DNA of 64,000 nt from Alphaproteobacteria bacterium (GTDB lineage: Bacteria; Pseudomonadota; Alphaproteobacteria; Rs-D84), in assembly GCA_017505705.1 (NCBI GenBank), contig JAFVOS010000011.1, positions 45,449 to 109,448 on the forward strand, in the 5' to 3' direction. The notes beneath the pieces were generated by a model. It was not told where the DNA came from. It did no database searches and was given only the letters and a program-made list of their open reading frames with translations. Shown piece by piece: positions 1,873 through 62,488 of this stretch. A program made the translations under genes and the position numbers. Numbering within the stretch: position 1 is the stretch's first letter; each line of letters starts with the position of its first letter.

Positions 1873-3258
1873 CTACTTTAAGTGCGCAGTCGGATTATAC
1901 GCCTTGGTTCCTTTACGAATTTCGAAATGTAATTGTGGTGTATCAACCTTGCCTGTTTCACCAACGGTACCTATTTTCTGACCAACATTAACACGTGTAC
2001 CACGTCGCACTGCCAACGAATCCATATGGGCATAAACCGTCATCCACCCTGCTGCATGCTGTACAATAATCAGATTTCCCATGCCTTTTACTTCATTCCC
2101 AGCATATGCAACAACCCCATTTTCAGCAGCCTTTACTGTTGTACCCTTGGCTGCACCGATATTTATTCCATCGTTAAACAATCCACCAGACTTTGCCCCA
2201 TAACCAGACAAAATCTTTCCTTTTACTGGCCATGAAAATTTTGACGAAGAACGCGCACTGATTGTTGGCAACTTTTTTGTTGGATCTGACGATATCTTTT
2301 TCTGTTCCTGTTTTACTGGCACAGACGCTTTTTCTGTTTGCACCGCAACTTTCTTTTCCGACGCATTCTGTACGACAGTTTTTTTCACATTTGCTTTTGC
2401 CAAATCAGGCACCTTTAACTTCTGTCCCACAGACAGCACAAATGGTGCTTTTAAGTTATTTAGAACCGCCAAATCGTTAACCGGCACAGAATATTTACGT
2501 GACACAGAATACAATGTGTCCCCCACCCCAATTGTCACTTCTTTCAATGCCACACGTGTTGTTGTCTGAACCCCTGTTGGCTTCTTTGCCGGTACAGCAA
2601 TTAAATCTGGTGCATCTTTTGATTCTTTTTTTGCAGCTGTCACAATTTCTTTCGCTTCTGCCACCTTCAACCTTTGCCCAACAGACAAGACATACGGCCT
2701 CTCCAAAGAATTCATCTTGGCCAATTCATCAACAGACATTTCATATTGTTTGGCCAATGAATACAATGTATCTCCACGTGCCACAACAACAAATTTTTCG
2801 TCTGTATTTTTAACAGTTCCATACATTGGCACCTGTAAATAATCGTCCTGATTATCTAACTTATCATCTGGCGATTGATATTCTGCGACGATAACGACCT
2901 GTTCTGATTTTTGATTATTTTCTTCTGTAATTTCGGGTTGTCTTTCTTCTGACTGGGGCGGAACAATATAGTCATCCACAGATGCATACATAACATAATC
3001 ATCATAACTGGACACATCAGACCCATACAAATCAGGCGATGCATATATATCATAATCCGTTGCCGCCGATGCATAAATTTCTGGCTGTGCATTTGGATCT
3101 GCCAGCAAGGCTGGATAACGCTGTGAAATAAAATCCCCAACAGAATCCGGCAACGACAAAATTTTTGGTTGCAAATCACAGCCCACGAACACAGGCATCA
3201 ACAAGATTACAAAAAGCAAACTGAATTTTTTCACAAGACAATTATAGCACAAAATCAA
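1873..3258 (-). CDS. nlpD: LysM-domain peptidase M23 (NlpD-like murein hydrolase activator)
   Basis: 461 aa. Two LysM repeats (GDTLYSLAKQY..., GDTLYSVSRKY...). C-terminal M23 domain ...GNLIIVQHAAGWMTVYAHMDSLAVRRGTRVNVGQKIGTVGETG...PQLHFEIRK. The N-terminus has a lipoprotein-like signal (LLMPVFVGC). Confidence 0.8.
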   Translation of the reverse strand: MILCYNCLVKKFSLLFVILLMPVFVGCDLQPKILSLPDSVGDFISQRYPALLADPNAQPEIYASAATDYDIYASPDLYGSDVSSYDDYVMYASVDDYIVPPQSEERQPEITEENNQKSEQVVIVAEYQSPDDKLDNQDDYLQVPMYGTVKNTDEKFVVVARGDTLYSLAKQYEMSVDELAKMNSLERPYVLSVGQRLKVAEAKEIVTAAKKESKDAPDLIAVPAKKPTGVQTTTRVALKEVTIGVGDTLYSVSRKYSVPVNDLAVLNNLKAPFVLSVGQKLKVPDLAKANVKKTVVQNASEKKVAVQTEKASVPVKQEQKKISSDPTKKLPTISARSSSKFSWPVKGKILSGYGAKSGGLFNDGINIGAAKGTTVKAAENGVVAYAGNEVKGMGNLIIVQHAAGWMTVYAHMDSLAVRRGTRVNVGQKIGTVGETGKVDTPQLHFEIRKGTKAYNPTAHLK

Positions 3259-7632: not shown

Positions 7633-9258
7633 TTATTCAAATAGCAACGGCAGTATACTGTCCAAGATTTTTCCAGTTGTCGGCACTGCATTCCACGCAG
7701 CTGTCTTCCACCCCCAAGAATCCTTGGTTGCCTGGGGTTCATCTAAAATTACCAGAATAGTATACTGTGGTGCATTTGCAGGAAATATACCTACATACGC
7801 AGTTAAATTTCTTTTACTGTCAACCTTGCCATTGCTGTACTTTTCAGCTGTTGCAGTTTTACCACCTATTTCAATACCCGCTATACGTGCTTTTTTTCCA
7901 CTGGTTTCTTCATTCACACGCACCATTATCTGACGCAGTCGTGCCGAAATCTCTTCATCCAGCACCCGTTCACCACGCACAACCCCCAATCCACGTTTTT
8001 GCAAGGTTGGATATATATAAATTCCGCCATTTGTCACCGCATTTACACCCAACATCAGATGCATTGGCGTCACACTCATTCCATGTCCATATGACAACGT
8101 TGCACGTTCAACAGGTCCCCATTTCTGTGGCATCAAACTGCGTTCTGTGCGTCCGAATTCCAAATCTAGCGCCTCATCAAAGTGTAATTTTTCAAAAAAT
8201 TCACGTTGTGCACCATCTGGCAAATCCAGCGCAATTTGCGCACTGCCAACATTACATGAATGCACCATAATTTCTTCGATTGTCAAATTTGGTCTTGGTG
8301 GTTTAAAACTGTAAATATCCTTTACCCGATGAACCACACGCCCAAATTTATCTTCGATTGGGAAAGGTTCTTTGACATAATATTCCTTGTTTATTCCATT
8401 TTGCAGTGCCAACGCAGTATTAAATATTTTAAATATAGACCCCATTTCAAACACACCACGCATTGGCATAAACATACGATTTCGTGCCGGATCCAACGAA
8501 ATATTTTCCGGATCATAGTCTGGCAAAGACACCATCGCCACAATTTCACCCGTTCGTGAATTCATCAGCATTCCCATGGCCGCCTTGGCCCGATATGTTT
8601 GCATTGCAATTGACAATTGGTCATAAAATACGGCTTGAACACGTGCATCCAATGACAACTGCAATGGGTCCTTATTTTCAATCAAATATTTATTATAAAC
8701 ACGTTCTGCTCCTTCCAGGCCACGTCCATCGCCACTAACAAATCCAACAGCATGTGAACACATACGCCCCTTTGGATATTTTCTATCCTGAACAGATTCT
8801 ACTTCCAACCCACGCAGCTTGGCTTTCTTTACCAAATTGCGCTGATAATCACTGGCATACTTTTTTAAATATATATTTTTACGTGACGAATTAACCAACC
8901 CCAACGCATCATTTAAAGAATATTCATACGGGAACACCTGATGAATCATTACTGCGACAGCTTCCTTGTCTTCAACCAGCTTGTTACGTAACACCACATG
9001 TCCCGACATAACATTTTTAGCCAAAATGTCACCATTTCGGTCAACGATGTCTGTACGCTGTACTTCCCACGTTCCATCAGAAACACCACGTCTTGTTTTA
9101 TCACTGCCCGCAAAGCCGTAATATAACGTGCATGCAATAAATGCAACAAACGCCAATCGCAGCCACCAATACACAGTATGCATACGTCCACGACCATCCA
9201 CGTCACCACGAATGCCTGTAAACCCACGTTTAAAAATATCTTGTCCTACATTAAACAT
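7633..9258 (-). CDS. ftsI: Peptidoglycan D,D-transpeptidase FtsI (PBP3-like class B penicillin-binding protein)
   Basis: SxxK (GSIFKIF), SxN and KTG motifs with an N-terminal TM anchor. The six-frame ORF extends to 9345. The start at 9258 (MFNVGQ...) was chosen because it follows the ftsL stop at 9251. Confidence 0.8.
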   Translation of the reverse strand: MFNVGQDIFKRGFTGIRGDVDGRGRMHTVYWWLRLAFVAFIACTLYYGFAGSDKTRRGVSDGTWEVQRTDIVDRNGDILAKNVMSGHVVLRNKLVEDKEAVAVMIHQVFPYEYSLNDALGLVNSSRKNIYLKKYASDYQRNLVKKAKLRGLEVESVQDRKYPKGRMCSHAVGFVSGDGRGLEGAERVYNKYLIENKDPLQLSLDARVQAVFYDQLSIAMQTYRAKAAMGMLMNSRTGEIVAMVSLPDYDPENISLDPARNRMFMPMRGVFEMGSIFKIFNTALALQNGINKEYYVKEPFPIEDKFGRVVHRVKDIYSFKPPRPNLTIEEIMVHSCNVGSAQIALDLPDGAQREFFEKLHFDEALDLEFGRTERSLMPQKWGPVERATLSYGHGMSVTPMHLMLGVNAVTNGGIYIYPTLQKRGLGVVRGERVLDEEISARLRQIMVRVNEETSGKKARIAGIEIGGKTATAEKYSNGKVDSKRNLTAYVGIFPANAPQYTILVILDEPQATKDSWGWKTAAWNAVPTTGKILDSILPLLFE

Positions 9259-9559
9259 CTGTGTTTTTAGGTTCCCTGTCTGGCAATTCATCAACTGATA
9301 CAGATTTTTGATAACCAATTGCGGCTGCACGTGGCACAACCCCACCGACTAAATTCCGCAAAACTTCTGGTCGCTTATATCCTTCGAATCGGGTTGCAGC
9401 ATCTGCAATATCCTGCTGGGTACGAACAATTTGCTGTCTGACATGATTTCTTGTTCTGTTTTGGGTTCTGTAGCACACCTGTAATCCAACCGTCAAAAAG
9501 AACATGGCACACACTGCCCAGATTCCAATATGGAACATTTTTTCGTCTTCACCTATCAC
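9251..9559 (-). CDS. ftsL: Cell division protein FtsL-like (small bitopic membrane protein)
   Basis: 102 aa with a single TM (IGIWAVCAMFFLTVGLQV). Lies immediately upstream of ftsI. Sequence identity alone is weak. Confidence 0.5.
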   Translation of the reverse strand: MIGEDEKMFHIGIWAVCAMFFLTVGLQVCYRTQNRTRNHVRQQIVRTQQDIADAATRFEGYKRPEVLRNLVGGVVPRAAAIGYQKSVSVDELPDREPKNTDV

Positions 9560-12193: not shown

Positions 12194-12231
12194 AAAAAAA
12201 TCCCCCCATTCCTTCCTGGGGGATTTTTTTA
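12194..12231. terminator. Bidirectional rho-independent terminator hairpin (C6-loop-G5 flanked by A/T tracts)
   Basis: Sequence aaaaaaaTCCCCCCattccttcctGGGGGAttttttt lies between convergent dksA and the Cys-rich gene. Confidence 0.8.
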
Positions 12232-13584
12232 TTGGATACCAACATTAAACTCATCAGACCAACCGGCGACTGTCTGACCACCAATTGAACAATTCAAATC
12301 TTCAAAACCATCTTCTATTTGGTTTTTCTTTACAACATGACTGGTAATCAATCCACCTGCTGTCCCCAGCACAACCCCAGCAATCGAATCGGACGCCAAG
12401 CGTGCTGTATTAAACTTGCCCTGGGCATCACGCCATTTTTTTACATCCAAATCCGACGTCAATGTCTGCAACACAGAAACAGATTCACTAATCTTTGATT
12501 GCGCCGTACTAAAACCAATTACAACGACGGTATTATCTTTTTCTGGTTCATCCACACACGTTGTATCAACCACCACTTTCAATTCATCATACAATCGCAA
12601 GAAAACATCTTTATCCGGTACAGCTGCACAATATGCTTCCAGCGCACTGATTTGCGTCAAAACATCTGCAAAGTTCACACAGCGATTTTTCCACGACACG
12701 ACATTTGCCAACAGCATCGCATCACAGATATATTTTTCTGGTTCTGTCACAACAACTGTTTTTGTCTTGCATACCCATTCATTATTTTCCTTAACAAAAT
12801 CCCCACCATTTACACAAACACACTTATTTACACTTGGCGTCCAGATTGTTTCTGTTCCTGGTTTTGCGCAACATGCCTTACATACCTCAGATGTACATAC
12901 TGACGGATGACATTTACCAACCACTGGATTTACTGGTTTTACCGGCTTAACCGGATCAACTGGCTTCTTATTATCAACCATCCCTGATTTACACACACCA
13001 TTTGCATCTGGCGCTAACCCCTCTCTACATTTTGTTGCCAAACAGAAGAATTCGGGTCCCTCCACACACACACCCTTAAATTCAATCCCTGATGGATCAG
13101 ATAAACGATAACCACTACAATCAACATTTGTCAGTGTTCTGCACCCACCACCTGCATCTGGTACACAATCACCAACTGCCACATCACCAAAACCATTTGT
13201 ATGACAAATTCCGTCTTCTACAACAACCCATTTATTATTTAAGCCAACTAGATTTTTACATTGATATTTTTGTTCTTTGTTAATAACTTGCCCTTTAAAA
13301 ACATGCCCTGGCCACATTGTCACAACCGATTGTGGCTTACACCCACTTACATTTTGTCCAGCATCACATTCATACGCCAACCCTGCCCCAGAATTTTTTC
13401 GACCTGAATTAATAAAACCCTGTTTAGTTAAATTCCAATCATTTTCATTTTTATACAAAAACTCATCATCTTCTGGATTTTGATTTCCAACATAGCTAAC
13501 CGTTGTATAGGAATTACATTCTGGCGCAGCCATTGTAACCATTGGCATAACAACAAATATCGCTAACAACAAAAACTTTTTCAT
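12229..13584 (-). CDS. Cysteine-rich secreted protein, unknown function
   Basis: 451 aa. Signal peptide MKKFLLLAIFVVMPMVTMAAP. More than 40 Cys. PVDPVKPVKPVNPV proline repeat. No recognisable enzymatic motif. Confidence 0.6.
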   Translation of the reverse strand: MKKFLLLAIFVVMPMVTMAAPECNSYTTVSYVGNQNPEDDEFLYKNENDWNLTKQGFINSGRKNSGAGLAYECDAGQNVSGCKPQSVVTMWPGHVFKGQVINKEQKYQCKNLVGLNNKWVVVEDGICHTNGFGDVAVGDCVPDAGGGCRTLTNVDCSGYRLSDPSGIEFKGVCVEGPEFFCLATKCREGLAPDANGVCKSGMVDNKKPVDPVKPVKPVNPVVGKCHPSVCTSEVCKACCAKPGTETIWTPSVNKCVCVNGGDFVKENNEWVCKTKTVVVTEPEKYICDAMLLANVVSWKNRCVNFADVLTQISALEAYCAAVPDKDVFLRLYDELKVVVDTTCVDEPEKDNTVVVIGFSTAQSKISESVSVLQTLTSDLDVKKWRDAQGKFNTARLASDSIAGVVLGTAGGLITSHVVKKNQIEDGFEDLNCSIGGQTVAGWSDEFNVGIQ

Positions 13585-13651: not shown

Positions 13652-13690
13652 TAAAAATCCCCCCAGGAAGGATTGGGGGGGGATTTTTTA
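13652..13690. terminator. Bidirectional terminator hairpin; inverted copy of the 12194-12231 hairpin
   Basis: Sequence aaaaaTCCCCCCaggaaggattGGGGGGGGAtttttta. Stem and loop are the reverse complement of the hairpin at 12202-12222 with one loop mismatch. Confidence 0.75.
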
Positions 13691-14980
13691 TCTGCACTCT
13701 TCAATCAATTGTTGAATCTGTGCACTTAAAACCAAATCTGTTGCTTTTTGCTTTTCAATCTGACGAACCGCATACAATACCGTTGCGTGATCACGTCCAC
13801 CAACATAATTTCCAATTTCTGCCAAAGACAAACCTGTTGCATTTTTTAATACGACCATCATTGTCTGGCGTGCCAAGACCAAATTACGACTGCGCCCACT
13901 GCCACATACTGCATCATATGAAACGCCTAATTTTTCACACATATTTTTTACCATTGCCAATGGTGTCTTGGCACGTTGCAATGTATCTGCCAGCAATCGT
14001 GTTGCAACATCCATATCAACAGCTGTGCCCATTAATTCTGTGTATGCCTTGATTTTTGTAGCAACCCCAGCAACCAAATGACCATCATTTGCAATGCGTA
14101 CTGCCAACTGTTCTGCAACATTTGCATTAACACCTGCACGACGCAGCAATACTGATTTAACATGTGCATTTGGTGCAACAACATCTGCAACCAACCCAGA
14201 CGCCAACAAAGATTGTGCACGACGATCAAATCCTGTCAAACTATTTGGCGCAACATTCGCAGTCAGAACAACATTTTTACCTGCTGCTTTCAGATCAACA
14301 ACCAACTGCAAAAATTCATCCATTGTCGCTTTTTTTCCGGCCAAGCTTTGCACATCATCCAAAATAAACGTATCACAATTACGGCAATAATCTTTGAATG
14401 CGAACACTGTACGATCATGCAGGCTGCGTGTAAATTCAGCAACAAACTGTCCACCATTCATCATAATAACACGACCATTTGATGCATTTTTAACACATTC
14501 CATCAGCAATGATTTCCCACAACCTGCCGCCCCATGAACATACAGTGGTGAAAACGCAGCTGCCCCACTTGCAATTTTTTTACATGCCGACAGCACAAAA
14601 ATATTATCATCTGTTGCAACAAAAGAATCAAATGCAATTGAATTGTTCGACTGTGCAACAACTGCTGGTGTGAAAGATTGTGTGTTATTATCATTTGCAA
14701 CCGGTGCAACATTTGCAACAACTGTGCGTTTTGCCGACCCCACAAACAGATTCAATGTCAAACCAAATGTTTCTGCAACACTGCGCAAAACATTACCATA
14801 CGCAGACATAACATAATTAAAGGAAAACTGATTTTGCACACCACAATTCAACACATCGTTTTCAATTTCAAAATTGATTGGTGCAATCCAAGAAGTAAAA
14901 CCAGCAGCATCAATTTTTTCGGCAACAGCCCCCTTGATAACATCAACATTTATCATTTGCTTTGTTGCCGTCATCTGCAT
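13688..14980 (-). CDS. dnaA: Chromosomal replication initiator protein DnaA (divergent, short)
   Basis: 430 aa. AAA+ Walker A HGAAGCGKSLL, Walker B FILDDVQ, and C-terminal domain IV ...LSLAEIGNYVGGRDHATVLYAVRQIEK (DnaA signature helix). Confidence 0.85.
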   Translation of the reverse strand: MQMTATKQMINVDVIKGAVAEKIDAAGFTSWIAPINFEIENDVLNCGVQNQFSFNYVMSAYGNVLRSVAETFGLTLNLFVGSAKRTVVANVAPVANDNNTQSFTPAVVAQSNNSIAFDSFVATDDNIFVLSACKKIASGAAAFSPLYVHGAAGCGKSLLMECVKNASNGRVIMMNGGQFVAEFTRSLHDRTVFAFKDYCRNCDTFILDDVQSLAGKKATMDEFLQLVVDLKAAGKNVVLTANVAPNSLTGFDRRAQSLLASGLVADVVAPNAHVKSVLLRRAGVNANVAEQLAVRIANDGHLVAGVATKIKAYTELMGTAVDMDVATRLLADTLQRAKTPLAMVKNMCEKLGVSYDAVCGSGRSRNLVLARQTMMVVLKNATGLSLAEIGNYVGGRDHATVLYAVRQIEKQKATDLVLSAQIQQLIEECR

Positions 14981-16403: not shown

Positions 16404-16437
16404 AAAAATAAAATCCCCATCTGGGGATTTTATTTTT
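16404..16437. terminator. Bidirectional terminator hairpin
   Basis: aaaataaaATCCCCatctGGGGATtttattttt. Confidence 0.75.
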
Positions 16438-17317
16438 AACACGCCAGCAGGCTCTTATAATCAAACCCACGCATATTTTCTATATCCTCTGGCTTTGGAT
16501 TGCATGCATCTGGCATTGGATTTTCTTCATCCCATTGCGTTTCTTCACAATATTGTTTTAAGGTTGTCAACGCATCAACAATATCATTATATTTAGAAGA
16601 CTTTTCTTGTTTTAAAACCTTCATCTGCGAACACAGCAATTCTGTTCCGCTTAATGCAGCCTGTCCTTCGACGGCACCACCAATTAATTTATTACCGAAC
16701 AATTCCATTGCGCCAACCCCAACTGCTGCGCCACCAACAGCACCACCAACAGTCGCCCATGTGCGTCCCTTCTTTTTGGCATCCAAGATACGATTACGCA
16801 ACGCATCCTTATCAGCCCATTCACCACACGTAATATTTTCACCCATTATAAAATATTTAGTTGGTACATCAGACACATTTATCCGAGAATCACTTGATTT
16901 CAACTCTACCTTTACAAAACAGACATTATTTTCAGGATTTTCAACATCTTCAATCATCGAAGAATAATTTCCAATATTGCTATAACGAGATGCCCAAACA
17001 AAAGTCGCCCCTACACCAATATTATTATTAATACATGCCGCCTTTTCACGTTCACGCATATCTTTTTCTGGTACGCCCCCCATATCCGGCTTTACATCTT
17101 CAATCTTGTCCGATGGCTCTTGTGGTTTTTGTGCATCACCCGGCTTATTATTATCTTCATTTGTTGCTGCGATATGTTCCAACTGGCGCTTTGACACCGC
17201 CGCCCTGGAATCCATCTGATTTGCCATTGATGCGCGACCACGCCCAGATTCTGGAACCGCTGCAAACGCAGACACCGACACAGAAAAGACAGTAAACAAT
17301 GCCACCAGTAATTTCAT
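16436..17317 (-). CDS. Secreted protein of unknown function (Gly-rich C-terminal region)
   Basis: 293 aa. Signal peptide MKLLVALFTVFSVSVSAFAA. Acidic/lysine-rich N-region. GGAVGGAAVGVGAMELFGNKLIGGAVEG glycine zipper-like segment. Ends ...SLLAC. Confidence 0.55.
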   Translation of the reverse strand: MKLLVALFTVFSVSVSAFAAVPESGRGRASMANQMDSRAAVSKRQLEHIAATNEDNNKPGDAQKPQEPSDKIEDVKPDMGGVPEKDMREREKAACINNNIGVGATFVWASRYSNIGNYSSMIEDVENPENNVCFVKVELKSSDSRINVSDVPTKYFIMGENITCGEWADKDALRNRILDAKKKGRTWATVGGAVGGAAVGVGAMELFGNKLIGGAVEGQAALSGTELLCSQMKVLKQEKSSKYNDIVDALTTLKQYCEETQWDEENPMPDACNPKPEDIENMRGFDYKSLLAC

Positions 17318-29445: not shown

Positions 29446-29652
29446 ATGAAAAAAATATCTGTATCTTTATCAGGTCACCAAACCAGTATAACCCTGGAAC
29501 CAGAATTTATTGATGTATTAAAACGCATTGCAAACGCACGTGGTGTATCTGTTGCATCAATAATCTCTGACATTGACAATACACGCACCCCTGATTCCAA
29601 CCTGTCATCTGCGATTCGTGTATGGGTCCTGACCCAGGTTATGAAGCATTAA
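29446..29652 (+). CDS. Ribbon-helix-helix domain DNA-binding protein (alphaproteobacterial 'SLSGHQTS' RHH family)
   Basis: 68 aa. MKKISVSLSGHQTSITLEPEFIDVLKRIANARGVSVASIISDID...NLSSAIRVWVL. A 1-nt gap separates it from the upstream gene. Confidence 0.7.
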   Translation: MKKISVSLSGHQTSITLEPEFIDVLKRIANARGVSVASIISDIDNTRTPDSNLSSAIRVWVLTQVMKH

Positions 29653-31691
29653 TTATTTTCTTTTTTATCAACTGCTGACATTGCAATTGATGACACGCAC
29701 GCAAATCCCAATATGATTATAAACCACCAATTCATACCAATCATTCTGTATGGCGTCATATGTGCACCCCATACAAAACCATCGATATGTCCCGACACAC
29801 CAATTGGGATACTGTCAATAATTGTACCATCGGCTGCAATAAATGCACTTATCCCGGAATAGTTTGCCCGCACAATTGGCAGTCCTGCTTCAATTGCATA
29901 ACGTCGCACCATATCCAGATGTTGATATGTCCCTGGCGTATATCCAAACCAGTTATCATTTGTAATATTAATAATTGCATCTGGCATCAGCCCTGCCCCA
30001 TCTGGCAACAATGAATCAGAAAAAATTATTTCATAGCATACCGCTGGTGCGAACACAAAATCACGTCCCGACACATTCAGACTTATCAGTTCTGGTCCAT
30101 CACCTGGGACCAGATTCGCTGGACTTGGCAAAAATCCCAACGGTCTGTATTCTCCAAACGGCACCAGATGAGATTTGCTGTATACGCTAAGAATCCGGCC
30201 CAAATCATCTGATACCACCAATGAATTTTGCACCCCAACAGATGGTTTATATGTCGACGCACCAACAACAACATTTGTTCCAAGCGCCGTTGCCAATGGC
30301 ATTTCATCACCATCGACCAAAACAAATGGATATGCAGTTTCTGGATATATAACTAAATCAGCACGTGATTGTCCCACCCCTAAAAACAATAATTTTCGCA
30401 GATTTTCTTCTGCATTTTTCATTGCCTGTTCACGATTATGTGTTGCTTTCTGCACCTGGGAAAAAGCAGGTTGTACCACACGAATCATTTGTGGTTTCAT
30501 CTCTGCCCCACTGTCAGATTTCATCATATTTTCACGCCCACACGCAACACCAACCAACATCAATAATATAAATACTAACAGCGAACCCAGCACTGCTTTA
30601 TTTTTTCTGTTTCGCAAAAATTCAACAACCGCCCCAGAAAACCCAACTATTATAAACGTCAGGCCCAACGCCCCCCACAACGACATCGAATTTGCCAACA
30701 TTGGAAAAGGCATTGCAATATTCGCAATTGGATTCCATGGAAAACCCGTAAACAGCCACTCACGCAGCCACAGCACAACCGTCCACACACCTGCAAAAAA
30801 GAACGGACGTGCCCCAGGTTTTACATTAACAATTCTTAATATTGCAAATGGCACACCAAATATTATCACACCTGCCAACCCCAAACCTATTACCCCAGGA
30901 ATTGTCCAAATTGCATATTGTGCGGTCAATTCCGGCACCACATATATAGAATTCAAGACCCACCAAAACATTGAAATTCCATACATTGCACCAAATGGCG
31001 ACACACGTAATAACGCCTGCCAGAAACCAACCTTTTTTGTTGTCCGCACTGTCAACCAATATGCCCCCATAAAACATAAAATCGTCATCCACCAAACATT
31101 AAAAGGTGCAAACCCAAACGCCGCACATGCACCAAACACTGCGTACAGCGCATATTGCCAAAATCCATCATCACGTATTTTCAGTTTGTTAAAAAACGCA
31201 AACACACCTGCCCCAGGACAACAAGATTCATCACCACAGACAAACTCTTGTTCATCATCATACGGATTTTTGATACCAATTTTTTTCAGTGCTTCAATCT
31301 CTTTAGATTCCATTTTTTTTGCTTGTCTATCATTTAAATGATCATATCCAATCAAATGCAAAACACCATGCACAACCATATGTGCCGTATGATTTTCCAT
31401 CGTTATATTTTCTGTTTTTGCCTGTTGCATCACCGTATCAAATGAAATATAAATATCCCCCAACAGAACATCATCCCCCAGTTCAAACGATAAAACATTT
31501 GTTGGCATATCTTTGCCACGATATTCACGATTAAGCGCATGAATTTCCGAATCATTTGTTAATATAATCGACACCTCTGATTCGCCATATCCCTTTAAAT
31601 CCAGCGCAGACACGATTTTTTCAAAATCGATTTTGAATTTTTTCCAGCGTTTATCATGAACATCAACATATACTTTCATTTGCATTCCCAT
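29649..31691 (-). CDS. lnt: Apparent fusion: rRNA maturation RNase YbeY (N-terminal ~150 aa) + apolipoprotein N-acyltransferase Lnt (C-terminal ~520 aa)
   Basis: 680 aa in one frame. N-terminal ...HMVVHGVLHLIGYDHLNDRQAKKMESKEIEALKKIGIKNPYDDEQEF is the YbeY H3xH motif and typical end. The Lnt N-terminal TM region (ALYAVFGACAAFGFAPFNVWW...) follows a ~20 aa linker (VCGDESCCPGAGVFAFFNKLKI) with no stop. The C-terminal CN-hydrolase domain (...VCYEIIFSD...) completes Lnt. Confidence 0.75.
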   Translation of the reverse strand: MGMQMKVYVDVHDKRWKKFKIDFEKIVSALDLKGYGESEVSIILTNDSEIHALNREYRGKDMPTNVLSFELGDDVLLGDIYISFDTVMQQAKTENITMENHTAHMVVHGVLHLIGYDHLNDRQAKKMESKEIEALKKIGIKNPYDDEQEFVCGDESCCPGAGVFAFFNKLKIRDDGFWQYALYAVFGACAAFGFAPFNVWWMTILCFMGAYWLTVRTTKKVGFWQALLRVSPFGAMYGISMFWWVLNSIYVVPELTAQYAIWTIPGVIGLGLAGVIIFGVPFAILRIVNVKPGARPFFFAGVWTVVLWLREWLFTGFPWNPIANIAMPFPMLANSMSLWGALGLTFIIVGFSGAVVEFLRNRKNKAVLGSLLVFILLMLVGVACGRENMMKSDSGAEMKPQMIRVVQPAFSQVQKATHNREQAMKNAEENLRKLLFLGVGQSRADLVIYPETAYPFVLVDGDEMPLATALGTNVVVGASTYKPSVGVQNSLVVSDDLGRILSVYSKSHLVPFGEYRPLGFLPSPANLVPGDGPELISLNVSGRDFVFAPAVCYEIIFSDSLLPDGAGLMPDAIINITNDNWFGYTPGTYQHLDMVRRYAIEAGLPIVRANYSGISAFIAADGTIIDSIPIGVSGHIDGFVWGAHMTPYRMIGMNWWFIIILGFACVSSIAMSAVDKKENN

Positions 31692-31710: not shown

Positions 31711-33588
31711 TTATGCCATTGTTGTCTTATACTCTTGACCATACAGCAACAAATCATTCTTTGCATTTTTCTGATGAATTTGTTTAATTCCTGCATTAAA
31801 AGCAATTTTATTTTTTCCACTCTGCTTAATTTTCTCTGCAACACGTGTAATATCTTTTTGCACTTTTCTGTTGCCGTTGGCCAACGCCAGTTTATAGTTT
31901 GCCAACGCTTTTTGATAATTTCCCAACTGTTCATACGCAAACCCAGCATTATATTGTGCCGCCCCATATTGAGATTTATCACCGATTCGCTGAACAATCT
32001 CGCGTGCCTGGGCAATTGCTTCGTTATACATCCCCAATTTATTATATGTTACAGATAAATCATTACGCAGCAATGCATTATCTGGATACTGCAAAATCAT
32101 ATCATTATATTTTTCAGCTGCTGCTTTATAATCACCTGCCCGATACGATGCCACTGCATCTTCATACAACTGGTCATATCCAATAACATATGTTTTAACT
32201 TCAACAGCTTCTTCTTTTTTTATTTTTTTGTCTGATTTTAGAACATTGTCCCAAACAGTTGGCGCACCAATTTCACATTTTCCCTGTGCGCAATGTTGCG
32301 CCACATCTTTTGGCAACCAATCAGACACAGGCTGCCACAAACCGCCAACTAATGGATTTCCTTGTCTATCTACTGGATTTTCCAACCACGCATTAAACTT
32401 ATCCAGTGTTTCATCATTTACGACACGCTGTCCTTGTTCTTCTATGAACCAATTATCTCTTTTGCCACCAACGATTTTATAGAACTCATAGAACCCCCCA
32501 ACTGGTATTTTCAAGAAAACCTCTGGTGCTATATTTCCTTTTATAACCTGGGCTTCCAACCATCTGCGCCATTTCAACCCATTGCCACCCTTTAAAAAAT
32601 TTCCCAAACTGTCGGCTATATCTTTTTTATCCCCACCCATCAGCCAAACACTGCCAACGGACGTCATATGTTCTACTGGATATTTGGCGAACACAGCCTT
32701 TACCATTTCATTTGTTATCGCATTTCCGTTTTCCGCATGCAGTTTATCCAGTTCTGCAAATCTTTCATGATAATTACGATTTCTTTTTTTTCCTATATAC
32801 GACGGCTCTATTAAATCCGTCCCCAGATTATATGTTGCCGCCGACAAAGATATTAATTCTGCCGCCTGTTTTATATCAACATCACCGAATGCCACATCAT
32901 AACAATACAACCTGAACAAAGTCTCGTTTTCCATAATATGCCAGCATGCCAATTCATATGCTTCTTCTGTTGTAATTGGTGGCGTATCTTTGGTTATACT
33001 TTTTTTATCTTTTAACATTGTCGAACCAAAACCAATTGTCCAAACGCCCTGTCCATCCTGATATGGTATATGTTCTCCTTTATCATTGGTTTTAACGCCT
33101 TCTTTGGCAATCAAGTCTGCAACCAGATACGGCAACACAGGTTTCATTTTATCCAGATATTCTGCATATGTTCCACGCTTTGCCTGCTCTGCTTCACGTT
33201 CTGTTTTTACCCGTTCCACCAAATCGGCCAGTTCTATTCCCCCTTTAACCCCACCGATAATCAATGCAATCATCATGTAATAAATAATATGCACCGACAA
33301 ATTTGGATTTTTTTTCATAAACGCAGACAGCTTTTTATCCTGCTTGTACTTATTTTTTTCAACCTTCATTTCACGCAATGCATTTTCCCCGGCCCGCAAC
33401 GCATGATTATCCAGCGTCAAATATTTTACAGCCCACGTTAAAAACTGCATCAACCCAGTCATGGTCAACCCCGCCCCCTTGGCGGCTTTTCCATACCACT
33501 TATCAGGTTGTAAACTCAGAATCCGCTTTGTCGCCCGACCAAACGCACGATGCGGTGCATTAACAATATTTTCAAAATCTTCAGACAT
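31711..33588 (-). CDS. Membrane-anchored protein with GH24 (T4-lysozyme-like) domain and C-terminal TPR repeats
   Basis: 625 aa. One TM (VHIIYYMMIALIIGGV). ...IAKEGVKTNDKGEHIPYQDGQGVWTIGFGST...ITTEEAYEL matches the GH24 E...D...T signature (EG..Y.D..G..TIG.G). C-terminal YEDAVASYRAGDYKAAAEKY...LGMYNEAIAQ...LGNYQKALANYKLAL forms TPR-like repeats. Confidence 0.6.
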   Translation of the reverse strand: MSEDFENIVNAPHRAFGRATKRILSLQPDKWYGKAAKGAGLTMTGLMQFLTWAVKYLTLDNHALRAGENALREMKVEKNKYKQDKKLSAFMKKNPNLSVHIIYYMMIALIIGGVKGGIELADLVERVKTEREAEQAKRGTYAEYLDKMKPVLPYLVADLIAKEGVKTNDKGEHIPYQDGQGVWTIGFGSTMLKDKKSITKDTPPITTEEAYELACWHIMENETLFRLYCYDVAFGDVDIKQAAELISLSAATYNLGTDLIEPSYIGKKRNRNYHERFAELDKLHAENGNAITNEMVKAVFAKYPVEHMTSVGSVWLMGGDKKDIADSLGNFLKGGNGLKWRRWLEAQVIKGNIAPEVFLKIPVGGFYEFYKIVGGKRDNWFIEEQGQRVVNDETLDKFNAWLENPVDRQGNPLVGGLWQPVSDWLPKDVAQHCAQGKCEIGAPTVWDNVLKSDKKIKKEEAVEVKTYVIGYDQLYEDAVASYRAGDYKAAAEKYNDMILQYPDNALLRNDLSVTYNKLGMYNEAIAQAREIVQRIGDKSQYGAAQYNAGFAYEQLGNYQKALANYKLALANGNRKVQKDITRVAEKIKQSGKNKIAFNAGIKQIHQKNAKNDLLLYGQEYKTTMA

Positions 33589-34014
33589 TTACTTTTTTCC
33601 CAATCCTGTTTTCTTTGCAATTTTTGATCGTTTACGTGCATAGTTTGGTGCAACAAATGGATAATCAACCGGCAATCCCCACTTTGCCCGATATTCTTCA
33701 GGTGTCATATTAAATTTACGCTTAACATATCGGCGCAGCATTACATGCCATGTGCCATCTTCCAGACACTGAATTTTATCTGGCTGAATTGAATCTTCAA
33801 TCTGTTGTGGTGTCACAGACGCCCCACGTAAAATCTCACGTGCTTGACTGACCGCTACTTCCATTGTCAAAGATGGATTTGCCGCAATTGCCGCCGCCGC
33901 CAGGTTTGCCACCGCCAACGCAAATTCTGAACTTTTATTTATATTTACCAATTGATAAAACCCTTTTATTCTAATAGAATAATTATAGCATAAATAAACA
34001 TCAAATAAAAGCAC
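33589..34014 (-). CDS. mucR: MucR/Ros-family transcriptional regulator homolog lacking three of four zinc ligands
   Basis: 141 aa. C-terminal ...KIQCLEDGTWHVMLRRYVKRKFNMTPEEYRAKWGLPVDYPFVAPNYARKRSKIAKKTGLG aligns to Ros ...[57 protein letters not shown], with C82 to D, H92 to Y and H97 to F. Confidence 0.7.
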   Translation of the reverse strand: MLLFDVYLCYNYSIRIKGFYQLVNINKSSEFALAVANLAAAAIAANPSLTMEVAVSQAREILRGASVTPQQIEDSIQPDKIQCLEDGTWHVMLRRYVKRKFNMTPEEYRAKWGLPVDYPFVAPNYARKRSKIAKKTGLGKK

Positions 34015-35309: not shown

Positions 35310-35336
35310 AAAAACCGGCAAAAGCCGGTTTTTTAA
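35310..35336. terminator. Bidirectional terminator hairpin
   Basis: aaaaaaCCGGCaaaaGCCGGtttttt between convergent rarA and the OMP gene. Confidence 0.8.
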
Positions 35337-36034
35337 AACAAAATATTTACCTTGGCACCAATTTGAACATCATCATGCTCAAATTCATAATCAATATGTC
35401 CAACATATTGTGTGCGTCCAAATTGGCGAACCAGTTTGCCCCCAATCCACTCTTCATTAAATGAAGGTGTGGTTGCTTTGCGAATAACAGCATTCAGGCC
35501 CAAACGCCAATCTGCATCAAATCTAAAATACGCTTCTGGCATAAAATCAATATACGCCATACCACGTTCATCATCAAAAATCCAATTAGACTGGATTGTT
35601 CCAGCCAATGTCACACCCGCCCATTGACGCCCAAAACGCCACCCAACATAATATGTTGAATCTGCATAATCAGGTGTTCTTACCTGGCGACTGCCACCAA
35701 ATTTAAAGCCAGCCAAAACGTCTGAGATAAACGTATCAGACGCACCTGCACGATACACAAAACCTAAATCAGTGCTGGTAAATCCGTCATTTTCCCCGGA
35801 AAAATCAATCTGATAATTTACATTTGCCATCACACTAAGTCTGTCATTTAAACCATACGACAGTGTTTCACCGAAACGCAATATATCCCGTCCAAACGTT
35901 GCCACCGATTCAGATAAAATTTCCTGCGTTTTCAGCATATACAGCGGATCAGACGTATCATGTTCCAAAATATTTGCATTTGCACCACCAACCAGCACTG
36001 TTCCAAACAAAAAAGCAGACAACAACTTATGCAT
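35333..36034 (-). CDS. Outer-membrane beta-barrel protein (small, porin/OmpW-like), unknown function
   Basis: 233 aa. Signal peptide MHKLLSAFLFGTVLVGGANA. Alternating hydrophobic beta-strand pattern. C-terminal ...AKVNILF aromatic terminus. Confidence 0.55.
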   Translation of the reverse strand: MHKLLSAFLFGTVLVGGANANILEHDTSDPLYMLKTQEILSESVATFGRDILRFGETLSYGLNDRLSVMANVNYQIDFSGENDGFTSTDLGFVYRAGASDTFISDVLAGFKFGGSRQVRTPDYADSTYYVGWRFGRQWAGVTLAGTIQSNWIFDDERGMAYIDFMPEAYFRFDADWRLGLNAVIRKATTPSFNEEWIGGKLVRQFGRTQYVGHIDYEFEHDDVQIGAKVNILF

Positions 36035-36105: not shown

Positions 36106-37344
36106 TTAGAAATGGAATATCGCTTGGACACCTAACGACATTTCAGATACGTTATCTATCTTAGCATCACCAGAATACTCAAGCCCCGTATTCACCGATG
36201 GATCATACAAATATGTTTTCAGATTTTTACCATCTGCACTATCATAGATTGAAGATTTTGCATAAAGGTTTAATGCAAACCAATCATTTGGCTGCCAACC
36301 TAATGCCGCCTTGACAGATGCCTGGTTATGCCATCCATAGTGACCAAACACACCCTCAACATTTAATGTCCAATCCTGGTTCAAGACGCTAAACACACCC
36401 AAACCACCTTCGATATAGAACATATCTTTTACATCTGTATCATATGCAATATAGAATGCGCCACCATTTGATTCTTCGACAATTGCGCCATATGAATTTT
36501 CATCTAAATTCAGATACCAACCACGTGCCAACCCATAGATTGTTGAACGTGCAACCTTGTACCCTGCTTTTAATTCCAGAACCAGGTTATTAGAAAAATC
36601 TTTCTGATGCTGATAATGTGCCGACGCCATTGCAATCCAATCGGTATTGTCAACCATACGCCATTGACCACCAATGCCAAAGACACTCAGAGAATTATCA
36701 TCCATTTTACTGTCTGCATCAGTTTCATCAAAATCAAATTTGTATTCTGCCATATCAAATTTAGCCATCGCAACCAATGCGACTGTATCGGTAATACCAT
36801 AACTAAAATCTTCTTTGATTGAGAAAGTATTTGATTTCCATTCGCCACCTGGTTCTACAAAATAATCCGACAATTCAAAATCGAACGAATTTTGATTATA
36901 AGACAAATCTGTTATAGAACCAAAGTTTCCACCCAATGGCTGAAAGAATGGATGTGCCAAATAATATTTACGATTTAATTTTGTGATAACCTTTTCACTG
37001 CGTGTTGTACGCACTGTATTCTTTGTTGCCTTGGCCGATGATGAAGATGCCGCATCATACTGTTTGTACAAATCGCTGCGCTTTGATGGTTGTGCATAAT
37101 ACAAATCACCTGCATCAGACTGTTTATACGTACGTGTTGTTGTACGTGTCTGATATTTTTGATAGTTGACATTTTCACGTGTTCTGACCGCTGGCCCACT
37201 TGTCAAATCAGCACTGGATGCCCCACGCAACCCCGAATTAGTTGCCCCAAATACAGGCGTCATTCCAAACATAGCGACCGCCCACACAAACAAAGACAAT
37301 TGCTTCTTCATAAAAAACTCCTTTTGACTAAAATTATAACACAA
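36106..37344 (-). CDS. Outer-membrane beta-barrel protein (larger), unknown function
   Basis: 412 aa. Probable start at MKKQLSLFVWAVAMFGMTPVFGA (about 37311). C-terminal ...LGVQAIFHF. Tyr/Gly-rich strands. Confidence 0.55.
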   Translation of the reverse strand: MCYNFSQKEFFMKKQLSLFVWAVAMFGMTPVFGATNSGLRGASSADLTSGPAVRTRENVNYQKYQTRTTTRTYKQSDAGDLYYAQPSKRSDLYKQYDAASSSSAKATKNTVRTTRSEKVITKLNRKYYLAHPFFQPLGGNFGSITDLSYNQNSFDFELSDYFVEPGGEWKSNTFSIKEDFSYGITDTVALVAMAKFDMAEYKFDFDETDADSKMDDNSLSVFGIGGQWRMVDNTDWIAMASAHYQHQKDFSNNLVLELKAGYKVARSTIYGLARGWYLNLDENSYGAIVEESNGGAFYIAYDTDVKDMFYIEGGLGVFSVLNQDWTLNVEGVFGHYGWHNQASVKAALGWQPNDWFALNLYAKSSIYDSADGKNLKTYLYDPSVNTGLEYSGDAKIDNVSEMSLGVQAIFHF

Positions 37345-61084: not shown

Positions 61085-61416
61085 TTTCTAAAACTTATTT
61101 TTCCCACTGCATCATAACCAAAGTATTTATTTATACGTTTTGTAATATCATCTGCCATATAAGACAATTGTAATGTATACGCTGGATTTGTTGGTCTGAT
61201 TACGATATTAAATTTATCATCACGCATTTTTTTTATGGCCGCCAATGTTGCCACCGCTGAAATATCAGCCCCCATAATCTCTGCCCAGCGGGCCGCCAGA
61301 TCTGAATCAGACGCACGCATTCCGAACATTTTTAAAAATCCCCCCATAACCCCAGCCATTGTCTGTGGTCGTGCGGCTCTTTTTAAAAACTTGTCATCAT
61401 TATTGTGGTTTGACAT
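61081..61416 (-). CDS. DUF721 (DciA-like) small protein
   Basis: 111 aa. ...WAEIMGADISAVATLAAIKKMRDDKFNIVIRPTNPAYTLQLSYMADDITKRINKYFGYDAVGKISFRK resembles the DUF721 pattern. Judged by eye only. Confidence 0.45.
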   Translation of the reverse strand: MSNHNNDDKFLKRAARPQTMAGVMGGFLKMFGMRASDSDLAARWAEIMGADISAVATLAAIKKMRDDKFNIVIRPTNPAYTLQLSYMADDITKRINKYFGYDAVGKISFRK

Positions 61417-62488
61417 AACTGTAAACTTTCGGCATCAGTATAAACATTTGTCCCTGGGCATGTTGTCCCTGGGCCAACTTATAGGCCTCATCACCCGACC
61501 CAAAGAAAATATCTGCACGAATCCAGCCACGAATTGCACTGCCAGTATCCTGGGCAATCATCAATCGACGGAACGGACGTCCATCTGACAGATTTGTGTT
61601 AATATAAACCGGCAACCCCAACGTATACAAATCATCATCCATTGCGATACTGCGAATCTTAGACAACGGCGTTCCCAATTTACCAACTACATCTGCTGGC
61701 TTTGATTCATAGAAATACACATAACGTGGATTAGTATAAATCACATCACGTGCCAATTTTGGATTTTGTTTTAAATGCATCCATACTGCATCTGCTGAAT
61801 ACCCACCGGCGGGTCTAATCCCACGACGACGCAGTTCTTCGCCAATTGATTTAAACGGCATATCATTAACAGCGGCAAAATTTAACTTAACATTCGTACC
61901 ATCATCCAACCGCAACACCCCAGATCCCTGAATCTGAATATTTTGTACATCGACAACATTAGCCCAATATAAAACACGTCCAATTTGCTTTTCTACAATA
62001 TCCTTCTTTGCCACCCCCTTGTAATTACGACCATCTGTTGGGATTCCCATCAGCGGTTCATTACATTGCGCCGTCTTTGTTCTGCACCCCGGGATAACAG
62101 GTGAATAATATCCCGTATACGTTCCTTTATCACCACCATTATCATTATAGATTTGATATGGCTGAAAATGGGATTCGAACCATGCCCGCACAGTCTTTAT
62201 ATCTGCTGACGCACTGGGCAGCATGCGACATTTTTCTGCGAATAGTTCTTTATCAGGGATAACACGCCCAACATACTGAATTTTTGCCCGACAAGAATTA
62301 CGAAACGCCTGCAACGCATAGCGCACATCATCATCACGCCACCCTGGCATCTGTGAATAAGACACCTTTTTAAAATTAGCCGGCAACACAGAATTATCAG
62401 ATGACGATGTCGGCGTTGACAAATCACAAGACGCCAGCACAAACACAGCACACACCGCCAAAAACGCACGCACAACTAAATTTCTCAT
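61400..62488 (-). CDS. mltA: Membrane-bound lytic murein transglycosylase A (MltA), lipoprotein
   Basis: 362 aa. Lipobox LASC. MltA-specific domain and 3D domain (...YWANVVDVQNIQIQGSGVLRLDDG..., ...AQDTGSAIRG...). Confidence 0.8.
   Translation of the reverse strand: MRNLVVRAFLAVCAVFVLASCDLSTPTSSSDNSVLPANFKKVSYSQMPGWRDDDVRYALQAFRNSCRAKIQYVGRVIPDKELFAEKCRMLPSASADIKTVRAWFESHFQPYQIYNDNGGDKGTYTGYYSPVIPGCRTKTAQCNEPLMGIPTDGRNYKGVAKKDIVEKQIGRVLYWANVVDVQNIQIQGSGVLRLDDGTNVKLNFAAVNDMPFKSIGEELRRRGIRPAGGYSADAVWMHLKQNPKLARDVIYTNPRYVYFYESKPADVVGKLGTPLSKIRSIAMDDDLYTLGLPVYINTNLSDGRPFRRLMIAQDTGSAIRGWIRADIFFGSGDEAYKLAQGQHAQGQMFILMPKVYSYVKPQ

Follow-up and report, generated by a model that had tools for sequence, protein, structure and literature searches.

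Enzymes of the YceG family (MltG/MpgA) have a cytoplasmic N-terminus, one anchor and a periplasmic glycan-cleaving domain, and work, tethered, with the wall-synthesis machinery. CpoB/YbgF, LpoP and NlpI are periplasmic TPR adaptors of cell-wall enzymes, and Slt70-type soluble lytic transglycosylases combine a helical-repeat module with a peptidoglycan-acting catalytic domain of the lysozyme superfamily. Phage GH24 endolysins (P22 gp19, PDB: 2anv; FAHEc1 endolysin, PDB: 7m5i; DLP12 RrrD, PDB: 4zpu; T4 lysozyme) share a two-lobed fold in which a Glu ending helix 1 is followed by Y-x-D-x2-G-x2-T-I-G on a β-hairpin and by a Y-N-x-G motif. In SpmX of Caulobacter and Asticcacaulis, a GH24 phage lysozyme was co-opted for housekeeping in Alphaproteobacteria. 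SpmX consists of an N-terminal muramidase, a variable intermediate region and two C-terminal transmembrane segments (10.1101/418723).

The gene that we compare with these systems lies in a 64-kb stretch of DNA, referred to below as the window. The ORF is a real gene, and from the N- to the C-terminus its product comprises a basic region (1–96), an anchor (97–116), a GH24 domain (~141–352), a middle domain (353–460) and a TPR module (468–607). Its features are as follows.

31711..33588, minus strand: whole ORF, 625 aa plus stop; NCBI MBR2012388.1, 'hypothetical protein', Alphaproteobacteria bacterium MAG
33301..33588, minus strand: N-terminal basic region, residues 1–96, helical, 18 K+R vs 9 D+E
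33412..33477, minus strand: weakly hydrophobic Gly/Ala/Ser/Thr-rich helix, residues 38–59, Kyte-Doolittle (KD) value ~1.0
33241..33300, minus strand: main hydrophobic anchor, residues 97–116, KD 19-residue mean 1.75, with a strongly basic loop just before it
33169..33240, minus strand: charged helical linker, residues 117–140, extending the anchor helix, weakly conserved
32533..33168, minus strand: enlarged GH24 (T4/P22-type) lysozyme domain, residues 141–352
33025..33102, minus strand: catalytic motif, residues 163–188 (E163, H173, Y176, D178, G181, T184-I-G-F-G188)
32209..32532, minus strand: family-specific middle domain, residues 353–460, ~105 aa, helices and a β-hairpin, W401-L-x-N-P-V motif
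32275..32292, minus strand: C433-x4-C438 pair in the middle domain
31768..32187, minus strand: three TPR repeats (helices 472–570) and a long capping helix (574–607)
31714..31767, minus strand: C-terminal tail, residues 608–625

The predicted structure of residues 141–352 has the two-lobed T4/P22-lysozyme fold, with E163 closing helix 141–163 in the AF2 model, and its nearest folds are phage endolysins, with which it also shares the motifs listed above. Confidence in the AF2 models is high (pLDDT 82.7 and 87.9). PF00959 (Phage_lysozyme) matches residues 173–289 (E=2.4e-7; 31.5 bits vs a gathering score of 22.3), and a PDB search with the family profile matches GH24 lysozymes, that of P22 among them. 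In hhalign, residues 174–258 were aligned with P22 lysozyme at 94.8% probability (E=5e-8); residues 16–64 of the P22 sequence used agree with the PDB alignment. NCBIfam yielded far-sub-threshold matches alone, such as BaGTA endolysin BgtA (30 bits vs a cutoff of 315). No lytic transglycosylase catalytic domain (GH23, GH102, GH103 or MltG/YceG) is present in the protein.

The domain differs from phage endolysins in several respects. Identity is just 21–23%, and ~210 residues stand here against ~150, the excess including a 6-aa insertion between the Glu and the β-hairpin, present family-wide, and ~50 residues in the C-lobe. The motif reads E163-G164-x11-Y176-x-D178-x2-G181-x2-T184-I-G-F-G, which corrects the E-G-x7-Y spacing given by the sequence-only reading and places the Tyr six residues further away than the x5 of P22/T4 lysozymes. 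The canonical E-x8-D-x5-T spacing is likewise absent (E163-x14-D178-x5-T184), only its D-to-T part being canonical. The domain ends in an invariant G-L-x-W-R-R-W-x-E helix (335–345). Read by eye, outside the hhalign-aligned region 174–258, this helix looks like the one at the C-terminus of P22 lysozyme, and an R-R-x-x-E helix at this end seems to be shared with phage GH24 endolysins.

The GH24 identity had been staked beforehand on the catalytic Glu, Asp and Thr being conserved in orthologues. Among 59 species-level orthologues, E163, Y176 and T184 are each kept in 59/59 and D178 in 57/59. The identity therefore withstood this test, and it is upheld by sequence, profile, fold and catalytic residues alike. 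As judged from its sequence, the domain would be a catalytically competent muramidase.

The claim of one transmembrane helix holds in that a single clear hydrophobic segment (97–115) is present, but a second, weakly hydrophobic helix at residues 38–59 has to be added; this helix is amphipathic or re-entrant, or else forms a weak first transmembrane segment. Across orthologues, the anchor has KD values of 1.06–1.75, merely moderate in many, and a G/A/S/T fraction of 0.21–0.47. Its N-terminal side is basic and its C-terminal side neutral, and paralogues and distant homologues start either with a short N-terminus rich in K/R that leads into the anchor, or with a sequence resembling a signal peptide. 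Because the basic loop precedes the anchor, everything after the anchor should lie outside the cytoplasm; the charge asymmetry and the starts of the paralogues place the enzyme there as well. The sequence thus points to a bitopic inner-membrane protein with a cytoplasmic N-terminus and periplasmic GH24 and TPR modules. Residues 1–96, probably cytoplasmic, include conserved F5, V9, P12, L-D-N (59–61), E68, K92 and P95.

The stretch of ~350 aa previously left unassigned was overestimated, since the GH24 fold runs to residue ~352 and just ~105 aa (353–460) are without assignment. Pfam searches with the isolated N-domain, C-lobe insert and middle domain returned no match at E<=10. For the middle domain, homologues were sought and none detected, and BFVD viral structures gave no match; a match to P0252, a Cys-rich repeat protein, was judged spurious on inspection. 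The Cys pair in this domain, claimed as conserved, is so in orthologues (C433 in 57/59, C438 in 52/59), but the L074 and L076 paralogues lack it. It is a candidate periplasmic disulfide, as far as sequence can suggest.

The C-terminal repeats, read as TPR-like from the sequence, are borne out as three TPRs: several Pfam TPR families match residues ~457–580, and the tandem helix-turn-helix repeats fit TPR profiles and fold. This module is the best-conserved part of the protein, with N509, N547 and N573 invariant. It is similar to the periplasmic adaptors YbgF/CpoB and LpoP, but the three-TPR peptide-binding domains of Hop, CHIP, Sgt2 and OM64 score as well as or above them, so the likeness is one of fold class and not of a specific adaptor family. 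Unlike in those adaptors, the TPR module is here fused to the hydrolase itself; Slt70-type enzymes likewise join a helical-repeat module to a lysozyme-superfamily domain. A conserved A-F-N motif (596–598) lies inside the capping helix just upstream of the tail, and the tail together with the low-confidence end of that helix forms a disordered, variable stretch (AF2 pLDDT <50 from residue 592).

Two genes flank the ORF closely.

33589..33951, minus strand: mucR/ros-family regulator gene (ROS/MucR, E=1.6e-27), probably 120 aa from a TTG at 33951
29649..31691, minus strand: ybeY-lnt fusion, the downstream gene, 19 nt past the stop of the 625-aa ORF

The mucR genes called in relatives encode 116–121 aa. 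As the mucR stop abuts the start of the 625-aa ORF (TAAATG), mucR is likely the first gene of an operon. The 19 nt before ybeY-lnt hold no terminator-like site, and the ORF is probably co-transcribed with both neighbors, to judge by the sequence. The gene keeps its slot between mucR and ybeY-lnt, among housekeeping genes, throughout about 75 species-level genomes. The adjacency to mucR singled out previously is real, with mucR directly upstream, but it has little significance: members of the order Rs-D84 share a collinear neighbourhood of ~12 kb in all, from ftsK to orf326, so the adjacency carries little specific information. Nor is it universal, for in L079, a Rickettsiales MAG with a distant homologue of full architecture, the gene lies between rarA and trmB, and mucR and ybeY-lnt are absent there.

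Our survey of the window covered every ORF of 120 aa or more and found no phage structural or lysis genes among them, all being housekeeping or unassigned. Envelope genes are abundant (PBP, with PBP2 at 7633..9345; LysM-M23 at 1873..3258; SPOR, FtsK, Lnt, LolA, LptF/G), and secretion-system genes are absent from the 64 kb. The gene of a canonical lytic transglycosylase, MltA, lies at 61400..62488, and the idea that the reduced genome had kept the GH24-TPR protein as its only enzyme for glycan cleavage was therefore dropped.

Members of the family occur exclusively in uncultured gut Alphaproteobacteria of the order Rs-D84 (Candidatus Enterousia and relatives) with genomes under 1 Mb, and the gene is a core chromosomal gene of this lineage. 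One complete Rs-D84 genome, OZ007020.1, measures 958,618 bp. It has been proposed that Rs-D84 bacteria live with other cells as obligate symbionts or parasites, and the lineage is predicted to draw metabolites from such cells (PMC12306168). No relative is encoded in the 2.9 million viral contigs of IMG/VR, and lysozyme matches among BFVD viral structures are weak (best E=1.7e-3, query TM-score <=0.37). The statement of the sequence-only reading that no phage genes lie nearby, and that this is not a prophage endolysin, thus agrees with the housekeeping context, the position conserved in ~75 genomes and the absence from IMG/VR.

The gene is under purifying selection, with dN/dS of 0.07–0.23, close to that of ybeY-lnt; some mucR and omp412 values were left out as ORF-extraction artefacts. 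Allele identity is decoupled from the flanks (39–47% where the flanks are 81–86% identical), and alleles at the locus are either exchanged or diverging in jumps. A plain housekeeping enzyme would not usually show such decoupling.

In L081, L083 and L084 the gene is duplicated in tandem, a short enzyme-only copy standing against a long TPR-bearing copy. Because the duplicates split the enzyme and TPR modules into adjacent copies, the two modules appear functionally linked. The L081 long copy is 52% identical to the 625-aa protein over residues 1–113 and diverged in the remainder; its N-domain and TPR are retained, whereas the Tyr, the Asp and ~80 C-lobe residues have been lost, and an intact GH24 copy lies immediately upstream. 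Retention of the scaffold part thus does not require catalysis in cis. In L083, the Asp is missing from P0162, the short copy, which has a signal-peptide-like start, and the long copy P0148 has the Glu, Y-D-D and T-I-x-I-G motif intact. Simple subfunctionalisation of the duplicates thus fits L081 but not L083.

We put at about 55% the probability that the protein is a tethered, partner-controlled cell-wall remodelling enzyme with a periplasmic GH24 muramidase, as its sequence suggests. A catalytic domain descended from a phage endolysin and held at the membrane would cleave the glycan strands in the peptidoglycan of its own cell. Periplasmic partners would dock in the highly conserved TPR groove and cytoplasmic partners would bind the N-terminal domain, the bound partners setting the place and time of cutting. 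We infer the topology, the enzymatic activity, the self-directed housekeeping role and the control by partners. Predicted topology and proposed role would resemble those of MltG/MpgA as an analogy of design, the catalytic domain being GH24 here and a YceG domain absent. Of the three roles suggested from the sequence, peptidoglycan remodelling is thus the most plausible, and assembly of a secretion system is unsupported, there being no such genes in the 64-kb window.

Several observations weigh against a tethered enzyme: the L081 scaffold without catalysis, the presence of MltA, the allele-flank decoupling and the moderate hydrophobicity of the anchor. The first two are in line with an SpmX-like landmark or scaffold, in which GH24 binds peptidoglycan or localises the protein, the N-domain and TPR recruit partners, and catalysis is weak or dispensable; MltA would then be available for ordinary glycan cleavage, and the TPR and N-domain are indeed the parts best preserved between distant copies. 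We regard this as possible but distinctly less probable. The SpmX cleft is remodelled (D20L/R/G, T26X, Y18 lost), whereas here 57–59 of 59 orthologues retain the Glu, Tyr, Asp and Thr, which speaks for selection on catalysis itself, and the degenerate L081 copy has an intact GH24 copy directly upstream.

An unlikely reading is that the muramidase attacks the wall of a partner or prey at a contact site, an arms race driving allele turnover. The predicted uptake of metabolites from other cells, the replacement and jumps of alleles at an otherwise stable locus, and short copies with signal-peptide-like starts (P0162) are consistent with it; anchoring in the inner membrane together with a cytoplasmic domain of 96 aa, the lack of secretion-system or contact-apparatus genes nearby, purifying selection in close pairs equal to that of ybeY-lnt, and a best-conserved part that is the TPR rather than a variable targeting domain are not. 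Equally doubtful is a broader proposal, an opener of peptidoglycan at cell-cell contacts, in the partner's wall or the cell's own, whose allele jumps would reflect conflict or partner specificity and which, in one variant, would have a SAR-like anchor and membrane-potential-dependent activity. A SAR-type regulated autolysin proper, kept inactive by its anchor in the energised membrane and released and activated when the potential is lost, is more improbable still. Its anchor composition and hydrophobicity, the second such helix upstream and the endolysin folds would suit such a device, yet 96 residues precede the anchor and a 45-residue linker follows it, unlike in known SAR endolysins; no phage lysis cassette (holin/pinholin, spanin) or other phage context surrounds the gene within 64 kb, R21 is not among the PDB sequence matches, and genomes of less than 1 Mb are unlikely to keep a lethal device universally as a core gene. 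Finally, GH24 is typical of phages and the protein matches PHROG 7 (endolysin; E=1.8e-9), but a remnant of a decayed prophage without cellular role is highly improbable, being effectively refuted by the position shared by about 75 species-level genomes, the low dN/dS, the housekeeping neighbors in 64 kb devoid of phage genes, the lack of relatives in viral contigs and the fused TPR, N-domain and middle domain, which phage lysozymes do not have.

Unlike phage endolysins, the GH24 domain here stands in a cellular context and forms one permanent chain with an anchor, a novel domain and a TPR module. SpmX has a Pro-rich variable region and lacks the TPR, the N-terminal cytoplasmic domain and the middle domain; it belongs to Caulobacterales, whereas the GH24-TPR family belongs to Rs-D84, and it was not among the sequence homologues found for this family. 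Because the lineages differ and no sequence homology to SpmX was found, the domestication looks independent. If active, the protein would give a second, independent example of a phage lysozyme turned into a core gene of bacteria, one in which, in contrast to SpmX, the catalytic triad was kept and docking modules were added.

Since few non-essential genes survive in genomes under 1 Mb, retention of this gene probably marks an important, unstudied step of envelope biology in a widespread but uncultured gut lineage. The gene alone does not resolve a long-standing open question, but the split into enzyme-only and scaffold copies and the allele exchange at a fixed locus offer comparative handles on the safety and targeting of a lytic enzyme. 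A literature search for GH24+TPR fusions returned nothing relevant. Relatives are auto-annotated in IMG as 'GH24 family phage-related lysozyme/TPR repeat protein', and both domains are thus already recognised by automatic annotation.

The lysTPR gene encodes a protein identical to MBR2012388.1 (annotated in NCBI as 'hypothetical protein IKA08_03955 [Alphaproteobacteria bacterium]', on a 288,746-bp MAG contig). Residues 173–289 match Pfam family PF00959 (Phage_lysozyme; E=2.4e-7, 31.5 bits vs the gathering score of 22.3), and several TPR families match residues ~457–580. The GH24/TPR protein described in the sequence-only reading is real and was correctly read. The features of the window considered here are as follows.

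31711–33588, minus strand: lysTPR ORF, 625 aa
29649–31691, minus strand: ybeY-lnt fusion, 680 aa (YbeY, residues 23–141; Lnt, residues 187–625)
33589–34014, minus strand: mechanically called mucR ORF, 141 aa from GTG
35333–36034 and 36106–37344, minus strand: unnamed conserved ORFs, 233 and 412 aa
27514–29652, plus strand: conserved four-gene block opposite the putative operon (326-aa P/T/Q-rich membrane protein, orf166, orf144, RHH_4)
61400–62488, minus strand: canonical MltA lytic transglycosylase, 362 aa, MltA and 3D domains, 28 kb from lysTPR

In the PDB, the family profile matched P22 lysozyme together with several further GH24 lysozymes (E~1e-3), and hhalign aligned it to P22 lysozyme with 94.8% probability over residues 174–258 only. 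AlphaFold2 models built with 29 orthologues reached pLDDT 82.7 and pTM 0.73 for the full-length protein, and 87.9 and 0.84 for residues 140–465. E163 is located at the end of helix 141–163, like the catalytic Glu of GH24. E163, Y176 and T184 never vary in the 59 species-level orthologues, nor do R341, R342 and E345 in the final helix of the domain, and D178 is present in 57. The catalytic motif proposed earlier stands in substance but not in spacing: the gap from G164 to Y176 is 11 residues, not 7, and is six residues longer than in P22 and T4 lysozymes. By-eye comparison with the P22 sequence, outside the hhalign-aligned 174–258, gives a C-lobe ~50 residues larger than that of P22 lysozyme and a fold ending in G-L-x-W-R-R-W-x-E; if this reading is correct, the GH24 domain would span ~141–352.

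The following residues, 353–460, form a confidently predicted fold of helices and a β-hairpin that had no match in Pfam, PDB or viral structures and is present only in the lysTPR family. This middle domain carries C433 and C438, found in 57 and 52 of the 59 orthologues, respectively. The TPR segment is the best-kept part of the protein in every comparison (47–86% identity vs 15–50% for other segments), with N509, N547 and N573 invariant, and the final ~35 residues are disordered and variable. When 1.84 billion representatives were searched exhaustively with an HMM profile of residues 140–462, only about 45 clusters matched the whole profile (E<1e-30), below which the matches fell sharply to ordinary ~150-aa lysozymes covering the first ~100 positions only. 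The enlarged lysozyme and middle domain thus constitute a narrow, sharply bounded family, and lysTPR is a lineage-specific variant assembled from known parts.

The sole strongly hydrophobic stretch comprises residues 97–115 (KD 1.75). Residues 1–96 contain 18 K+R vs 9 D+E, the sequence beyond the anchor is neutral, and the pre-anchor loop is positively charged across orthologues (net +2 to +11, mostly +4 or more). In two paralogues (L074 and L076) and in distant homologues, a short K/R-rich N-terminus leads directly into the anchor, and the start of one relative, P0162, resembles a signal peptide. From the single anchor, the basic N-terminal region and these starts, we infer that the lysozyme, middle and TPR domains are periplasmic, a location with which the conserved Cys pair is consistent. 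Helix 38–59, which is weakly hydrophobic, may be either amphipathic or a weak first membrane span; in both cases, the C-terminal part would face outward.

A search of 5.8 billion proteins revealed at least 250 relatives, the best 120 of which are nearly all full-length (about 590–700 aa; 43–99% identity), with one 378-aa fragment. Scanning one genome for each GTDB species yielded 78 loci, every one in an uncultured gut MAG that carries the label Candidatus Enterousia, Alphaproteobacteria or Rickettsiales; one of the loci is on a complete chromosome of 958,618 bp. The host group is the order Rs-D84, whose members have genomes <1 Mb, are fermentative, lack flagella and retain RodA/MreB/PBP2 (PMC12306168). 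A phage gene or prophage remnant is excluded, as the sequence-only reading had held. The window ORFs of at least 120 aa, all of which were scanned, encode tRNA synthetases, dnaA, recA, ruvC, secDF, secB, tatC and similar genes, together with lolA, lptF/G, ftsK, a class B PBP, a LysM-M23 peptidase, a SPOR protein, an S41 protease, glycosyltransferases and a few proteins without family assignment (including the sizeable ORFs 12229–13584, 16436–17317, 21617–22750, 22683–23717 and 26840–27616). The only 'phage integrase' match is a 286-aa XerC/D-type recombinase, and no relative turned up when 2.9 million IMG/VR contigs were scanned by pattern, with tblastn confirmation.

Comparison of the window's neighbours with the 78 loci by tblastn showed the same arrangement of genes in almost every locus: ftsK, two predicted outer-membrane proteins, rarA (reverse), mucR, lysTPR, ybeY-lnt and, on the other strand, RHH_4, orf144, orf166 and orf326. 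The genes ybeY and lnt are usually separate members of a ybeZ-ybeY-corC-lnt cluster. Here the rRNA-maturation RNase YbeY and the apolipoprotein N-acyltransferase Lnt form a single fusion downstream of lysTPR. The fusion recurs in practically every related locus, as in the 672-aa gene of L081. The ROS/MucR regulator gene lies directly upstream, its TAA abutting the lysTPR ATG (TAAATG), and rarA/mgsA is transcribed divergently. This junction, the 19-nt gap between the lysTPR stop and ybeY-lnt, and the lack of a terminator-like site there point to a mucR-lysTPR-ybeY-lnt operon. The weight earlier placed on mucR adjacency was excessive: the whole neighbourhood is frozen, which leaves the adjacency with little information of its own, and the gene for a more distant homologue with the full architecture (P0158, from a Rickettsiales MAG) lies between rarA and trmB, without mucR or ybeY-lnt. 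Translation of mucR probably starts at TTG 33951, which would make the product 120 aa long, in line with the 116–121-aa genes called in relatives, and would leave space for divergent promoters shared with rarA. An extended −10-like sequence, TGcTATAAT, occurs at 33982–33990 (minus strand).

In closely related genomes, the dN/dS of lysTPR (0.07–0.23) is similar to that of ybeY-lnt (0.08–0.16) and above that of rarA (0.02–0.06); the gene is functional. The relationships of lysTPR disagree with those of its flanks. By flanking sequence, the loci nearest to the window are L027 and L065 (81–82% concatenated identity), yet their lysTPR proteins share only 47% and 39% identity with the window's. The window's lysTPR instead shows 70–76% identity to its counterparts in L008, L002 and L003, loci with 71% flank identity; this is the top value among 219 genome pairs in the same flank-identity bin. 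Between the window and L027, MucR is 90–95% identical in its last 40-residue windows, the first 40 residues of lysTPR are 40% identical, and identity rises again within YbeY, placing a sharp breakpoint at the mucR/lysTPR junction. For the pair L027 and L065, flank identity is 86% and lysTPR identity only 47%; conversely, L002 and L003 show a dS of 0.20 for lysTPR vs 0.58–1.27 for the flanks. A plain housekeeping model does not explain this pattern, which suggests that discrete alleles have been replaced through recombination at a fixed core locus; episodes of fast divergence may have contributed. The loci compared with the window for decoupled identity also included L012 and L069. In L073 (5932–8041), whose flanks are among those closest to the window's, lysTPR occupies two frames (520 aa and a 133-aa TPR fragment), either an assembly frameshift or a pseudogene.

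Three more distant MAGs have two tandem genes between mucR and ybeY-lnt (L081, 6001–9212; L083, 583–3523; L084, 2562–5369), a short TPR-less GH24 protein (398–443 aa) followed by a long TPR-bearing paralogue (516–618 aa). The L081 long copy keeps the TPR and the N-domain (52% identity over residues 1–113) and has lost the Tyr, the Asp and ~80 C-lobe residues, while the motif of its short copy is intact. The reverse holds in L083: there the Asp is absent from the short copy, and the long one appears intact. These tandem copies tie the enzyme and scaffold modules together functionally. In the shorter paralogues of L074 (5827–7410, 527 aa) and L076 (5878–7488, 536 aa), both the N-terminal domain and the Cys pair are missing; the TPR, the R-R-W motif and all four of Glu, Tyr, Asp and Thr are present, and the genes adjoin IMPDH or alaS in unrelated housekeeping contexts.

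Beyond its established domain identity and conservation, we infer a topology, activity and role for lysTPR, the best-supported reading being a tethered, partner-controlled muramidase acting on the cell's own wall. It would be a membrane-tethered periplasmic enzyme of phage ancestry, placed or controlled via its TPR and N-terminal domain. It may alternatively be mainly a non-catalytic scaffold: the L081 copies show that the scaffold part is able to survive in the absence of catalysis in cis, with an outcome that varies by lineage. Against this reading, the catalytic positions are kept in 57–59 of the 59 orthologues. LysTPR may also be aimed at partner cells, a dependence of Rs-D84 on other cells having been proposed (PMC12306168), or may act as a SAR-like (signal-anchor-release) regulated autolysin. 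If lysTPR is an own-wall muramidase, it is not the sole glycan-cleaving enzyme, since the window also encodes MltA and the genome thus has at least two. Among known cases, the nearest is SpmX, in which Caulobacterales have domesticated a GH24 domain; it differs in architecture and has a remodelled cleft (10.1101/418723), whereas the lysTPR family retains the canonical residues. The best description of lysTPR is therefore a separate, independent domestication in a new architecture. Its place as a core gene of very small genomes and its unusual allele history add some interest.

Several other features of the neighbourhood were observed. The 233- and 412-aa ORFs, without a Pfam or NCBIfam match, have conserved synteny, hydrophobic N-termini and C-terminal ends ILF and FHF, respectively, and look like lineage-specific outer-membrane β-barrel proteins. 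The RHH_4 product is a ribbon-helix-helix protein, and orf144 has a weak YrhA-family match (E=1.4e-5, under the cutoff). Plus-strand GC skew is strongly negative throughout the window (1–64000; −0.07 to −0.34 per 2 kb), and the majority of genes, dnaA (13688–14980) among them, are on the minus strand.
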